From contig OZ245011.1 in NCBI GenBank assembly GCA_965223665.1, positions 1,312,001 to 1,376,000 on the forward strand: a stretch of 64,000 bases of DNA. The letters run 5' to 3'. The DNA is from Nitrospinaceae bacterium. GTDB lineage: Bacteria > Nitrospinota > Nitrospinia > Nitrospinales > Nitrospinaceae. The translations under genes and the position numbers were made by a program. This document shows positions 40,615 to 49,448 of this stretch, one piece after another. The stretch's first letter is position 1; the number at the start of each line of letters is the position of its first letter. The notes beneath the pieces are model-generated. The model was given only the letters and a program-made list of their open reading frames with translations, did not search any database and was not told the DNA's origin.

Positions 40615-41598
40615 TTAATTCCTTCGACCGTAAGGCTCATTTTCAAATTTCAATTGAATATTTCTTAATAATGATTGGACGCAATCTGGGCAAGCTCGAT
40701 GAATTATTTCTTTATAAGTTTTTTGCTTAATAAATTCCTCAATTTCATGCCAGTTTTTTTCTTCATCCCTCCATTTCTTACACCATGGACAAATTTCTAA
40801 TAAGGTCTCTTTGTTGCTGGTTTTCCCATCATGCAAATTAGAATTTATTAAGGTATTATAATTTTGAAATACCAAAATCCCTCCATCAATTTTTCCCGAT
40901 TGGACAATTGAAGATAATGTTAAATCAAATGATAGAGAATTCTCTCCTTCATCCTTTTTATTAATAACTTCAAGAAAATTGAAATAAGCTCTCTCTCGAA
41001 ATACTCTTTCGAAGGCAATCTCTTCTTTATTTTTACTATAAAAAAATAGTTCTTTAAGAGGTTTTCCAATTACTTCATTCTCATTCCAACCTGTTAAAGA
41101 TTTGGCTGCTAAATTTAAAAAAGTAATCAGCCCATCATTATCAAAAATTATTATTCCCAGATTTAATTTATCCAAAGTAATGGAAAAATTGTTTTGAATT
41201 CTTAAAATCCGCAACTCTTCTTCACAATTTGATAATGCCATTTCAATATTTGCAATCAAGGTCTTTTCATTAAAAGGTTTTAACAAATAACCGAAGGCCT
41301 TAGTTTTTGTAGCTCTATTAATTGTATTTTTATCTGAATATGCAGTTAGATAAAGAACAGGTGTTCTAAAAACTTCCCAAATTTTTTTTGCACATTCAAT
41401 ACCATCAAGAGCTCCTTGAATTTTTATATCCATTAAGACTAAATCAGGTTTTGCTACATTTATCTTACCCATCAGTTCATTATAGGAAGTTGCGGTACCC
41501 ACAATTTGATATCCATTATTCTTAAGGCAATATTCAATGTCTAAGGCGACAATGGATTCATCTTCAACTATAAAAATTTTAGGGTCTTTTGTTGTCAT
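40615..41598 (-). CDS. Response regulator: REC + PAS + C-terminal Cys4 domain
   Basis: IFIVEDE, PDLVLMDI, YLTAYSD, YLLKPF; PAS ITFLNLAAKSLTGW..EVIGK; ICPWCKK...HRACPDC; start set at MTTKDP. Confidence 0.88.
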   Translation of the reverse strand: MTTKDPKIFIVEDESIVALDIEYCLKNNGYQIVGTATSYNELMGKINVAKPDLVLMDIKIQGALDGIECAKKIWEVFRTPVLYLTAYSDKNTINRATKTKAFGYLLKPFNEKTLIANIEMALSNCEEELRILRIQNNFSITLDKLNLGIIIFDNDGLITFLNLAAKSLTGWNENEVIGKPLKELFFYSKNKEEIAFERVFRERAYFNFLEVINKKDEGENSLSFDLTLSSIVQSGKIDGGILVFQNYNTLINSNLHDGKTSNKETLLEICPWCKKWRDEEKNWHEIEEFIKQKTYKEIIHRACPDCVQSLLRNIQLKFENEPYGRRN

Positions 41599-43087
41599 GT
41601 TTATCTTCCTTAATAGGAAATATAATTGTAAAACAAGTTTGCCCTTTTCTAGAAACAAAAATTTGCCCTTGCAGTTGCTCTTCTGATAATTTTTTCACCA
41701 ATCGAAGCCCTAATGTTTGTGTTGTATTAAAATCCCAATCTGGGGATAAACCTACACCGTTATCACTAACTTTAAATTCAACCCTGTTTGATGCAGGGTC
41801 AGTAAGTTTCAAAGAAACTTTAATATCCCCTTTCCGATTGTCTGGGAACGCATGTTTTAAAGCATTTGAAATTAATTCCTGCAAAATCAGACTACAAGGC
41901 ACAATTTTATTAATACCCAATAATAGGGAGTTCGTCTCAATTTGAACGGAAATCTGTTCACTTCTAATTCCATATGCCAAAAGTAAACGACTCACCAAAT
42001 CATTAAAATACTCCCCTAATCCAATTTCCGAAATATTATGGAAATCAAAAATTTTTTCATAAAGTAACGCCATAGATTCGATTCTTTGCGAACATTCTTT
42101 AAAAACCTCAATTGCGTTTACATTAGATGTATGATTTGATTGAAGGCGTAACAAGCTTGAAATAATTTGCAAATTATTTTTGACTCTATGATGGATCTCA
42201 CCGAGAAGAATATCCTTATCCTTTAAGGATCTCTCTAGATTTTCTTGTACGGACTCTCTTTCTACTATTTCTTGATTAAGGTTCTTATTGGCATTAGAAA
42301 GCTTCAAATTTGTATCCGATAATTCTTTTGTTCGAAGTTTTACCTTTTCTTCTAATTGGTTTTTATAATTCTCAAGCTCTTTTCCTCTATTTTCTATTCG
42401 AGTTAGCATTTCATTAAACCCCAAATACAATGTACCAATTTCATCCCTTGTATTGTGTGCCACACGAATCGAAAAATCGTGATTCTTTGATAAGCGCTTT
42501 GTTGTCTCAGCAAGATTTAAAATTGGCTTTGAAATGATTGACTGAAGTTTAATAGAAAACAAAAGAGACAAAAGCATTGCCGTCAGAAAAATAAACAATG
42601 CAAGCAATGAATACGTTTTCAATAAATTTTTGTATTCTATCAGCTTTGCCCGAATCACAATTTCTCCAATATTTTTTGATTTAAGAAATATAGGACTGCG
42701 GATTTCAATATCCTCTTCGAAAAAATTGAAAAACCAGTTCTCATTTTCTTCTTTATATGGAGTTTTTGATTCTAAATTTGATGGGTTAAATTCGACTAAC
42801 AATTCCTTCGACTGGGTATACAAAGCTGCATAATATACCTGAGGCTCCGCCTCTACCGATGAAAGAATTTGAAGAGCCGCATCTTTATCCTCAAAGCGAA
42901 GGGCTGCCTGATTATTATTTCCCACTGCCTCTGCCAAAACTTTTAAATTTCTGACCATGTTGGATTTAAATAGTCTTAAATCGTTTATGGCAAAAATGCT
43001 ACATGTCAATATCAATGTTAAAAAGGAAACTGCTAAAAACATGCAAACCATTTTCCATTTAATTGGCAAATCTAAAATGGAATTCAT
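41579..43087 (-). CDS. Membrane sensor histidine kinase (YfiN-like periplasmic domain, HAMP, HisKA_2)
   Basis: Two TMs flanking a periplasmic domain; HAMP PILNLA..DEIGTL..FNEML; EIHHRVKNNLQ; ELISNALKHAF, DNGVG, TLGLRLV. Confidence 0.92.
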   Translation of the reverse strand: MNSILDLPIKWKMVCMFLAVSFLTLILTCSIFAINDLRLFKSNMVRNLKVLAEAVGNNNQAALRFEDKDAALQILSSVEAEPQVYYAALYTQSKELLVEFNPSNLESKTPYKEENENWFFNFFEEDIEIRSPIFLKSKNIGEIVIRAKLIEYKNLLKTYSLLALFIFLTAMLLSLLFSIKLQSIISKPILNLAETTKRLSKNHDFSIRVAHNTRDEIGTLYLGFNEMLTRIENRGKELENYKNQLEEKVKLRTKELSDTNLKLSNANKNLNQEIVERESVQENLERSLKDKDILLGEIHHRVKNNLQIISSLLRLQSNHTSNVNAIEVFKECSQRIESMALLYEKIFDFHNISEIGLGEYFNDLVSRLLLAYGIRSEQISVQIETNSLLLGINKIVPCSLILQELISNALKHAFPDNRKGDIKVSLKLTDPASNRVEFKVSDNGVGLSPDWDFNTTQTLGLRLVKKLSEEQLQGQIFVSRKGQTCFTIIFPIKEDKHDNKRP

Positions 43088-43665
43088 AGTGGGTTATCCT
43101 TCACAATAATGGCTAAATTAAGAAGAAATGAACTAATTTCTATTCCCTGTCTTTTTAAAGCCATTCGATTGATCTCAAATTTTACTTTATTATTTCTTTC
43201 AATAAAATTAATCCCCGCCCCTAAGGAACCATATCCTTCCGATTCCCCAATAATTAAAGTAGGGTTTCCATTTAATACTTTTAAAATGTGTTGAAAATCA
43301 TCATCATTCTTCCCAGTTACAAATACGATGTCACATTTTTTAAGAACCTTATCCGGAACATTTTCATAAATAATAATATTTTTTTTTAGAATACCTTCAT
43401 CCTTTGCAATTGAAAAAAGGTTTCCAAATTTGTTAGTCCCAATAACGCATAATGCATATTTAGGGAGTTCAGTTTCTTGGTTGGGGGTATTAGGCCATCT
43501 TAAAAAATCAATGAACTTCGATACTAGGCTGGCCTTAATAGTATATTCTCTGTTAACAGGAACGGCTTCTACCAGTTTCTCCATTTGAAGAGAAAAAAAT
43601 AGGAACAGAGAAATTAATTTAATAAAGGAGAAAATATATCCTTTGGATAATTTCGAGGGGTTCAT
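43084..43665 (-). CDS. YfiR/DUF4154-family periplasmic protein
   Basis: EYTIKA..FLRWP, LCVIG, INFIE..KVKFEIN, ISSFLLNLA. Confidence 0.88.
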   Translation of the reverse strand: MNPSKLSKGYIFSFIKLISLFLFFSLQMEKLVEAVPVNREYTIKASLVSKFIDFLRWPNTPNQETELPKYALCVIGTNKFGNLFSIAKDEGILKKNIIIYENVPDKVLKKCDIVFVTGKNDDDFQHILKVLNGNPTLIIGESEGYGSLGAGINFIERNNKVKFEINRMALKRQGIEISSFLLNLAIIVKDNPL

Positions 43666-48613: not shown

Positions 48614-48629
48614 ATTGCAAGGAGGCATC

Positions 48630-49448
48630 ATGGGTAAAATTGTTCAAGATCACCTTCATTTGAATAGTCAAAGGCAGACCCAAGATTATTCGATTAGCGA
48701 AATATATAACGAGAATTCCAAATTACACCCCTCCACAATTCACGCGGTCCTGCCAGCCACAGAATATTCTAAAGAAGAATTGCAAGCCATGATTAAGGGC
48801 TATAAGCAGTACCCTCACGCAAAGAAAATTAAACTCCTAACCCCCAAGCAAGATAGAAAAACATTTTGGGAAGTGATTGAATCCAGAAGATCCATTAAAA
48901 CTTTTGGAGATGAAGCATTGAACTTTGAACAGCTTTCTATAATTCTTTGGCAAAGTTATGGAACTACGGGGGAGATAGATGAACCAGGAGTGGGAAAACG
49001 GCTAAAAAGAGTGGTTCCTTCAGCCGGAGGTCTCTATCCGGGGGAAATTTATCTGGGAGTCCGAAATGTTTCAGGGTTAGACCCAGGAGTTTATCATTAC
49101 AATGTACCTAATCACGAATTAGAGTTGCTCTCCTCAGGAGATCCGACCCAAAGTTTGCATAAAATTTGCTGCCAACAAGATTTTGCCCAAGAAGCTGGAG
49201 TTGTAATAATGATGTCAGCAGTTCTAGAGAGAACAAAGAGAAAATATGGAGAACGAGGATATCGATATGTATTGCTTGATCTGGGTCATCTTGGACAAAA
49301 TATTTATTTGTCATGTACAGCACAACAGTTAGCTGTGGTAACCACCTGCGGATTTTATGATGATTTAGGAAATGATTTTCTCAAACTTGATGGGTTAAAT
49401 GAGTCCCTGATGTATATAGCCTTTATAGGAAAAAATAAGGAACTCTAA
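48630..49448 (+). CDS. SagB/ThcOx-family FMN azoline dehydrogenase
   Basis: RRSIK, PSAGGLYP, GVYHY, KYGERGYRY (Lys-Tyr motif), GHLGQN; GGAGG RBS before ATG 48630. Confidence 0.93.
   Translation: MGKIVQDHLHLNSQRQTQDYSISEIYNENSKLHPSTIHAVLPATEYSKEELQAMIKGYKQYPHAKKIKLLTPKQDRKTFWEVIESRRSIKTFGDEALNFEQLSIILWQSYGTTGEIDEPGVGKRLKRVVPSAGGLYPGEIYLGVRNVSGLDPGVYHYNVPNHELELLSSGDPTQSLHKICCQQDFAQEAGVVIMMSAVLERTKRKYGERGYRYVLLDLGHLGQNIYLSCTAQQLAVVTTCGFYDDLGNDFLKLDGLNESLMYIAFIGKNKEL

Follow-up and report, generated by a model that had tools for sequence, protein, structure and literature searches.

An azole-peptide operon conserved beside a TonB-dependent receptor, YfiR-like protein and sensor kinase in Nitrospinota: a candidate self-sensing circuit

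Does a bacterium that encodes a short azole peptide also sense it, through a receptor encoded next door? The question is raised by a stretch of 64,000 nucleotides (nt) from a Nitrospinaceae bacterium (GenBank assembly GCA_965223665.1, contig OZ245011.1, positions 1,312,001 to 1,376,000; hereafter the window). Here a predicted operon for a thiazole/oxazole-modified microcin (TOMM), a type of ribosomally synthesised and post-translationally modified peptide (RiPP), lies back to back with an operon for a TonB-dependent receptor, a periplasmic YfiR-like protein, a sensor kinase and a response regulator. From the comparison with relatives we consider it very likely that the two operons are functionally coupled. 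The best-supported mechanism, to which we give a probability of about one half, is a self-sensing circuit in which the cell's own azole peptide, as a signal or as a metal binder, is sensed through capture of the YfiR-like protein by the receptor. If true, the Nitrospinota, a lineage of environmentally important nitrite oxidisers, would provide an example, rare among Gram-negative bacteria, of self-sensing by a peptide or of a RiPP metallophore.

Two divergent operons and their linkage

The genes in question are listed here with their coordinates in the window.

40193-40576, plus strand: XRE-family helix-turn-helix protein of 127 amino acids (Pfam HTH_19 and HTH_3), convergent with the response regulator gene
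40615-41598, minus strand: response regulator with REC, PAS and a C-terminal Cys4 tail (Pfam Response_reg, 79 bits, and PAS)
41579-43087, minus strand: inner-membrane sensor kinase, CHASE8-HAMP-HisKA_2-HATPase (Pfam; NF053592, 172.1 bits)
43084-43665, minus strand: periplasmic YfiR-like (DUF4154) protein with a signal peptide (Pfam PF13689, 105 bits)
43690-45768, minus strand: TonB-dependent receptor of the TOL_0244 type (plug and barrel; NF053590, 555.3 bits)
45664-45926: shared divergent control region, bounded by the receptor start at 45663 and the precursor start at 45927
45927-46160, plus strand: precursor peptide of 77 amino acids with an NHLP-like leader and a Cys-rich core, SSCVCICCTASVIQLATK
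46196-47227, plus strand: SagC-like, E1/ThiF-like partner protein with a leader-peptide-binding domain (TIGR03882; Pfam ThiF, 32.2 bits)
47240-48613, plus strand: YcaO cyclodehydratase of the SagD family (TIGR03604; Pfam YcaO, 207.7 bits)
48579-49448, plus strand: SagB-type FMN dehydrogenase, azoline to azole (TIGR03605; Pfam Nitroreductase, 77.8 bits)

The eight open reading frames (ORFs) placed by a preliminary description of this DNA were found at the positions given there, and the domain matches agree with its labels. Two starts deserve comment. The longest ORF of the regulator begins with a TTG at 41658, and the ATG at 41598 is the likelier start; it overlaps the 3' end of the kinase gene by 20 nt, and likewise the start of the kinase gene lies 4 nt inside the end of the YfiR-like gene. 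Since the minus-strand genes overlap or lie at most 24 nt apart, they apparently form a single operon. The spacing of 158 bp described between the two operons is correct for the longest receptor ORF (45768), but a start at Met36 (45663), which leaves 263 bp, is likelier, because a signal-peptide-like stretch follows Met36 and the ortholog at locus L080 has a methionine at the aligned position. In an alignment of four close relatives the element TGGAC[A/T]-17 nt-TA[A/T]NNT is kept about 60 bp upstream of the precursor start, and by its sequence could be a promoter. A scan of the control region with the sigma-70 consensus gave two matches against 2.6 expected, which is not above chance.

Orthologs of the YcaO protein (41-76% identity) were found in 21 other genomes of the 120 Nitrospinota genomes searched, all 21 in one order, and all 23 loci that these genomes hold were compared with the window. 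The 18 genomes of the other five families contained no YcaO ortholog. At every one of the 23 orthologous TOMM loci a receptor of the same clade lies 288-1244 nt from the SagC or SagB gene, with the divergent arrangement of the window at 22. At L083 the receptor, YfiR-like and kinase genes run co-directionally downstream of SagB, so that the locus is rearranged with its adjacency kept. The YfiR-like and CHASE8 kinase genes directly follow the receptor at 21 of the 23 loci. One exception is G034, where they lie about 10 kb off, separated from it by two more tandem receptors and by genes for a halogenase-like protein and an O-methyltransferase; the other is G031, where the adjacent receptor has an internal stop and an intact cassette is found on another contig. 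Unbiased clustering of the ORFs in 24 neighbourhoods returned the receptor, SagC, YcaO and SagB 24 times each, the kinase/regulator 23 times and the YfiR-like protein 22 times; no other family is widely shared, and the flanking genes differ between the neighbourhoods. The preliminary description had proposed scoring this co-occurrence across genomes, reasoning that the circuit would fall if orthologous RiPP clusters generally lacked the cassette; the result is the opposite, with the receptor adjacent at all 23 loci and the full cassette at 21.

The two operons also share their descent. A tree of 53 receptors (quick method, LG+G4 model; long-branch warnings apply) splits into clades of 30 and 23 with an SH-aLRT support of 100 on both sides. 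All 24 TOMM-adjacent receptors fall in the clade of 30; of its other members, three lie within about 12 kb of a TOMM operon, one sits at the edge of a contig and two have no TOMM genes nearby. The clade of 23 has no TOMM-adjacent member, and its receptors mostly come with a YfiR-like gene of their own and a hybrid kinase. The same groups are given by the YcaO tree. Among 40 relatives, the receptor clade is present in 15 of the 15 genomes with YcaO and in one of the 25 without it (G028, where the receptor starts about 482-521 nt from the contig end). Joint loss is seen in G013, which is without YcaO, SagC and the receptor clade and keeps a SagB fragment of about 120 amino acids (L112:11060-11404; 80% nucleotide identity over 197 bp to G004); three other genomes of its genus have the unit.

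The window itself offers a paralog for comparison. A second trio of receptor, YfiR-like protein and hybrid kinase, without TOMM genes, occupies 58421-62966 on the minus strand. It is divergent to a cluster resembling a contractile injection system of the extracellular type (63924 onward, plus strand; L113:1025-7734), with Pvc16_N, sheath, two gp19 tube proteins, CIS_tube, a VgrG-like spike and PAAR. This injection-cluster neighbour is kept at none of the 20 relatives' loci checked, the same genus included.

The adjacency of the TOMM operon and its receptor could merely have been inherited, with no functional link. The linked loci are confined to one order, and tree structure mostly tracks taxonomy; the genomes are related and most co-inheritance follows that taxonomy, so that the loci are not independent and the counts given above overstate the case. 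Shared ancestry does not account easily for a seven-gene unit that is conserved while the genes flanking it are not, for one locus that is rearranged yet still adjacent, for the loss of both parts together, or for a paralogous trio whose neighbour is not kept even inside the genus. We regard inherited synteny without function as very improbable. The preliminary description had also allowed that the adjacency was coincidental, which the linkage at 23 of 23 loci, the mirrored trees and the joint presence and absence contradict. Chance adjacency had been our own initial reading, given the several YfiR-like genes of the genome, and was dropped on comparison with the relatives.

Two placements in the trees are unusual. 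G070 (L080) is assigned to another family, yet both trees place it with the genus of the window, and its unit is 55-71% identical to that of the window, compared with 30-54% for genomes of the window's own family. At L048 the unit lies on an 11-kb contig of a metagenome-assembled genome labelled Gammaproteobacteria. Both placements reflect either transfer of the whole unit or mis-binned contigs, for G070 too a contig of 11 kb.

The receptor, the YfiR-like protein and the kinase

The minus-strand operon had been read as a YfiBNR-like cassette in which a receptor replaces YfiB and a kinase replaces the cyclase, and the protein matches bear this out. The sensor half of the kinase matches the YfiN/DgcN model NF007423 (residues 18-249, 89 bits), and the YfiR-like protein matches the solved YfiR (4yn7) at an E value of 1e-8; with the YfiR equivalog model NF053586 it reaches 50.4 bits against a cut-off of 85. 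Two cysteines of the YfiR-like protein, C73 and C111, are invariant in the ortholog alignment. The best NCBIfam models for the three proteins are those of a curated trio, NF053590 for the receptor (555.3 bits, cut-off 645), NF053591 for the YfiR-like protein (83.9 bits, cut-off 125) and NF053592, 'HK_near_YfiR_like', for the kinase (172.1 bits, cut-off 194). As all three stay below the curated cut-offs and yet match these models best, the operon is a divergent relative of the NCBIfam trio, with which it shares the order receptor, YfiR-like protein, CHASE8 kinase. The trio itself is therefore already catalogued; what is new is its coupling to a peptide operon and a predicted contact of the receptor N-terminus.

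Ahead of a TonB-box-like EITVTS, the receptor carries an N-terminal extension that is conserved (residues 25-50 in the 657-amino-acid form) and in which L44 is invariant. In an alignment of 22 orthologs the extension of this receptor clade reads L[ST]EEQL.IL.MDI.QLMQTEV and precedes a TonB-box-like VTSVSK; a shorter form of the N-terminal motif also occurs in the paralogous receptor clade. The mature receptor (residues 25-657) and the mature YfiR-like protein (residues 35-193) were co-folded, together with three controls, and custom alignments were supplied. The runs scored 0.63, 0.61 and 0.60, and the best of the three controls scored 0.01. Of 80 solved complexes, 58 attain the mark used for such scores, as do 2 of 110 mismatched pairs; these rates are approximate here owing to the use of our own alignments. 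At least 84% of the contacts recur between runs, and the partner pLDDT is at least 83. All confident contacts on the receptor fall within residues 27-50, and among those on the YfiR-like protein are residues 86-93 and two invariant residues, R39 and N159. Co-folding of the receptor N-terminus with YfiR had been suggested in the preliminary description; the predicted contact (0.61 against 0.01 for the best control) supports such an interaction without showing it.

By a rough mapping through the alignment to the solved YfiR, residues 86-93 lie near YfiR Q88-N90. In the solved YfiB-YfiR complex, as described in excerpts of the structural report (PMC4887326), residues 44-58 of YfiB form a stretched N-terminal loop that binds to YfiR at S57, R60, Q88-N90, R175 and H177, and this surface partly overlaps the proposed YfiN site. 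Since the modelled contacts lie near the YfiB-binding area, they suggest that the receptor N-terminus takes the role of the YfiB N-terminus.

The receptor might instead serve uptake, mainly importing a peptide-metal complex as MbnT does methanobactin, with the YfiR-like protein and the kinase reading the periplasmic state (redox or the imported complex) without contact to the receptor. It does retain a TonB-box-like motif and a full plug. The core is Cys-rich, as chalkophore precursors are, and PfeS/PfeR provides a case of two-component sensing of an imported siderophore. The cysteine pair of the YfiR-like protein aligns, moreover, with Cys71-Cys110 of YfiR, which the excerpts just cited describe as redox-sensitive (PMC4887326). 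Yet the co-fold puts the receptor N-terminus on the YfiR-like protein by a wide margin over the controls, and neither a periplasmic binding protein nor an inner-membrane importer is conserved nearby in the 24 clustered neighbourhoods. A Fur-box scan of 23 intergenic regions showed no enrichment either (observed mean of 12.0 of 19 matches, shuffled 12.3). We consider uptake without contact an improbable account of the unit.

The peptide operon and the self-sensing proposal

Judged by its sequence, the region 45927-49448 is a four-gene TOMM operon of the linear azol(in)e RiPP type. The YcaO protein passes the SagD-family model TIGR03604 (294.9 bits, cut-off 219.25), the E1-like partner passes TIGR03882 (53.5 bits, cut-off 36.9) and the SagB dehydrogenase passes TIGR03605 (149.4 bits, cut-off 78.4); on the partner protein the SagC subfamily model TIGR03603 gives 53.1 bits, below its cut-off of 187.65. 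The precursor in the window, of 77 amino acids, reads MHSKMQNAIMEIL...HEVSSCVCICCTASVIQLATK. Homologous precursors are found beside the enzymes at 24 of 25 loci, with a conserved leader (consensus M..N[LF]QEAI..LS.DEDYR...) that weakly resembles the NHLP clan (NF038399, E 0.009) and a conserved CC[T/C]C core. The core, which follows an 'RP' motif, is very short, for example ICCTCYAAPSDPSRN, LCCCTCAPA, WCCTCYAAE or ELCCCCCL, and is longer in the window's subclade (SCVCICCTAS). The sole locus at which no Cys-rich precursor was found is L041 (G002), which looks degenerate; an ORF between its receptor and SagC genes ends in WCLFLLLK with no Cys run and is perhaps a frameshifted precursor. A core conserved in this way would suit a molecule with a conserved partner better than an arms-race toxin.

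Two other observations concern biosynthesis. The flavin halogenase-like gene and the O-methyltransferase gene of G034 (L044:3479-5702) lie between tandem clade receptors beside the TOMM operon and could provide additional tailoring enzymes. Outside the window, at G000:C1:1966528-1967520, a distant second protein with a YcaO domain lies in a frame of 755 amino acids; it has an ortholog in a genome of the same genus.

Outside the order, 578 relatives of the receptor were found in many phyla, and the best 80 were examined. A YfiR-like gene accompanies 74 of these 80 and a kinase 68, and TOMM genes occur only at two Nitrospinaceae loci. The upstream neighbours of these trios are heterogeneous, mostly more kinases or more trios. 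Conversely, YcaO relatives of at most 41% identity in other phyla had no receptor, YfiR-like or kinase gene within the flanks (the contigs of L010, L060 and L064 end upstream). In the genome of the window, TOL_0244-type receptors are confined to the two trios of the window, and there are five full YfiR-like genes and one broken one. Outside the window lie two YfiR-like genes above the NF053591 cut-off (G000:C1:1060879-1069320 and 1119805-1128579), each after a giant ORF (2813 or 2924 amino acids) and before a protein of 269 or 283 amino acids. Three window ORFs, 55046-57955 (minus strand, 969 amino acids), 54176-54637 (minus strand, 153 amino acids) and 53352-53834 (plus strand, 160 amino acids), have no Pfam or NCBIfam match. 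A literature search, mostly judged by title and with supplementary tables outside its scope, found no experimental paper on the trio; by title it found nothing on this Nitrospina peptide cluster, which supplementary genome-mining tables could nevertheless list.

The breadth of the trio bears on the main rival to self-sensing, namely that the cassette senses some other cue (a foreign peptide, a chelate, a nutrient or envelope stress) and merely regulates the TOMM operon, whose product would be an antimicrobial or competition factor that never meets this receptor. The trio is a general sensory module, with a YfiR-like gene in 74 of the best 80 relatives and no TOMM genes in 78 across many phyla, and the second trio of the genome has none. 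A divergent gene pair that is conserved often consists of a regulator and the gene it controls, and linear peptides rich in azoles, for example microcin B17, act as antibiotics. This explanation leaves unaccounted for, however, why the receptor diverges in step with YcaO, why the TOMM-linked receptors make up a separate clade, and why additional clade receptors cluster around the TOMM operon in G034 and G012. The precursor core is conserved across four families, unlike those of arms-race bacteriocins, and immunity and export genes were not linked in the clustering of the 24 neighbourhoods. We hold the sensing of some other cue to be possible but less likely than self-sensing.

The output side is less uniform than the sensor. 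One gene of the cassette had been labelled as a regulator, but the protein consists of REC, PAS and an unnamed Cys4 tail, and a recognisable DNA-binding domain is lacking. The tail (CxWCK...W...ExF...CxxC; 40615-40860, minus strand) is conserved in 9 of 11 orthologous regulators, whether PAS is present or not; it has no Pfam family, and its atlas matches are unnamed and below 0.9. Homologs of the XRE helix-turn-helix gene stand beside the regulator at L009, L033, L039, L042, L045, L088, L089, L091 and L111, with two copies each in L047 and L048, and the unbiased clustering recovered the gene in 7 of 24 neighbourhoods. It may belong to the unit as a DNA-binding output. Many loci carry a hybrid kinase instead, or both kinase types, and from this variation the sensor half appears constant and the output variable.

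Gene content, conserved linkage, co-phylogeny and a predicted contact are the observations from which we infer the rest of the circuit. The precursor would be processed by the SagC-like, YcaO and SagB proteins, as their families suggest, into a short peptide in which the CC[T/C]C core becomes contiguous thiazoles or oxazoles. The peptide would then leave the cell by an unlinked route, which is a gap in the mechanism, and, free or metal-loaded, would bind the dedicated TonB-dependent receptor, a step to which the conserved linkage points. Ligand occupancy would release the N-terminal extension and TonB-box region of the receptor into the periplasm, where, on the co-fold model, the extension would capture the YfiR-like protein. 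By analogy with YfiR and YfiN, the capture would lift the inhibition that the YfiR-like protein exerts on the CHASE8 kinase. The kinase would phosphorylate the REC-PAS-Cys4 regulator, and expression of the divergent operons would change, possibly via the XRE helix-turn-helix protein. We propose tentatively that the azole peptide is thus the natural ligand of an orphan trans-envelope relay, in which the extension of the loaded receptor sequesters the YfiR-like protein and so activates the CHASE8 kinase.

Several results weigh against self-sensing. All linked loci belong to one order and are not independent of each other. The 78 receptor relatives without TOMM genes, among the best 80 of the 578, mean that the trio does not require a TOMM operon. 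In the clustering of the 24 neighbourhoods, no exporter or leader peptidase is conserved around the peptide operon and no inner-membrane importer nearby; three small C39-like ORFs elsewhere in the genome are without evident link to it. The Fur-box scan was negative, as described, and a count of shared 9-mers in the 23 intergenic regions returned only leader-coding words and A/T runs, with no conserved operator. The lack of a DNA-binding domain on the regulator and the differing kinase output types of the loci count on the same side, and the co-fold may be partly recall by the model, since the YfiB-YfiR complex is already solved.

The interest of the locus lies in this combination. The trio is widespread, and here one of its clades is locked to an operon with a defined and conserved peptide. 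The operon supplies a candidate ligand, and what the trio senses, and how, becomes a question for the bench. If the proposal is true, the locus would provide the first case of a RiPP autoinducer or metallophore that is sensed by a receptor/YfiR-like/CHASE8-kinase relay, and a worked example for a trio present in hundreds of species of many phyla.

Comparison with known systems

Among the closest known systems are YfiBNR (TpbB/DgcN) of Pseudomonas aeruginosa and E. coli and HmsCDE of Yersinia. The periplasmic DUF4154 protein is common to them and to the unit described here, with the pair aligned to Cys71-Cys110 conserved, whereas the second YfiR disulfide, Cys145-Cys152, is not conserved in the YfiR-like protein. 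As in YfiBNR, the inner-membrane sensor has CHASE8 and HAMP input, and a flexible N-terminal segment of the outer-membrane partner is proposed to capture the periplasmic protein. That partner is a 22-strand TonB-dependent receptor here, in contrast to the OmpA/Pal-like lipoprotein YfiB, and no OmpA-like family was found among the conserved neighbours in the 24 neighbourhoods. In place of a GGDEF cyclase the unit has a HisKA_2 and HATPase kinase and a REC-PAS regulator, and, unlike YfiBNR, it is linked to a biosynthetic operon. With the NCBIfam trio (TOL_0244 receptor, TOL_0243 YfiR-like protein and kinase) it shares the gene order and the family N-terminal motif; only the present clade is coupled to a TOMM operon.

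In systems of the FecA-FecR-FecI/FpvA type, a TonB-dependent receptor reports a self-made secreted ligand across the periplasm and induces the cognate genes. The receptor described here has no STN Pfam match, and no anti-sigma/ECF (extracytoplasmic function) sigma pair is among the conserved neighbours; the relay would instead use a soluble YfiR-like protein and a two-component kinase.

Ribosomal peptide products, rich in Cys or in azoles, that are paired with or carried by a TonB-dependent receptor are also known, from methanobactin operons (MbnA, MbnB, MbnC and the receptor MbnT) and from PqqU, and thiazolyl peptides are taken up through siderophore receptors. In contrast to the oxazolone-thioamide groups made by MbnBC, the product here is predicted to carry YcaO/SagB azoles, and the MATE exporter, periplasmic binding protein and sigma-factor regulator of methanobactin operons are absent.

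With biosynthetic clusters of the SagBCD, McbBCD and plantazolicin type, finally, the plus-strand operon shares the set of SagC-like, YcaO and SagB proteins and a core with contiguous Cys, Thr and Ser. It differs from them in that the cluster lacks an ABC exporter, an immunity gene and a protease, and also in its host, which belongs to a Gram-negative lineage of nitrite oxidisers; its core is very short and conserved, and the cluster is linked to a sensor.

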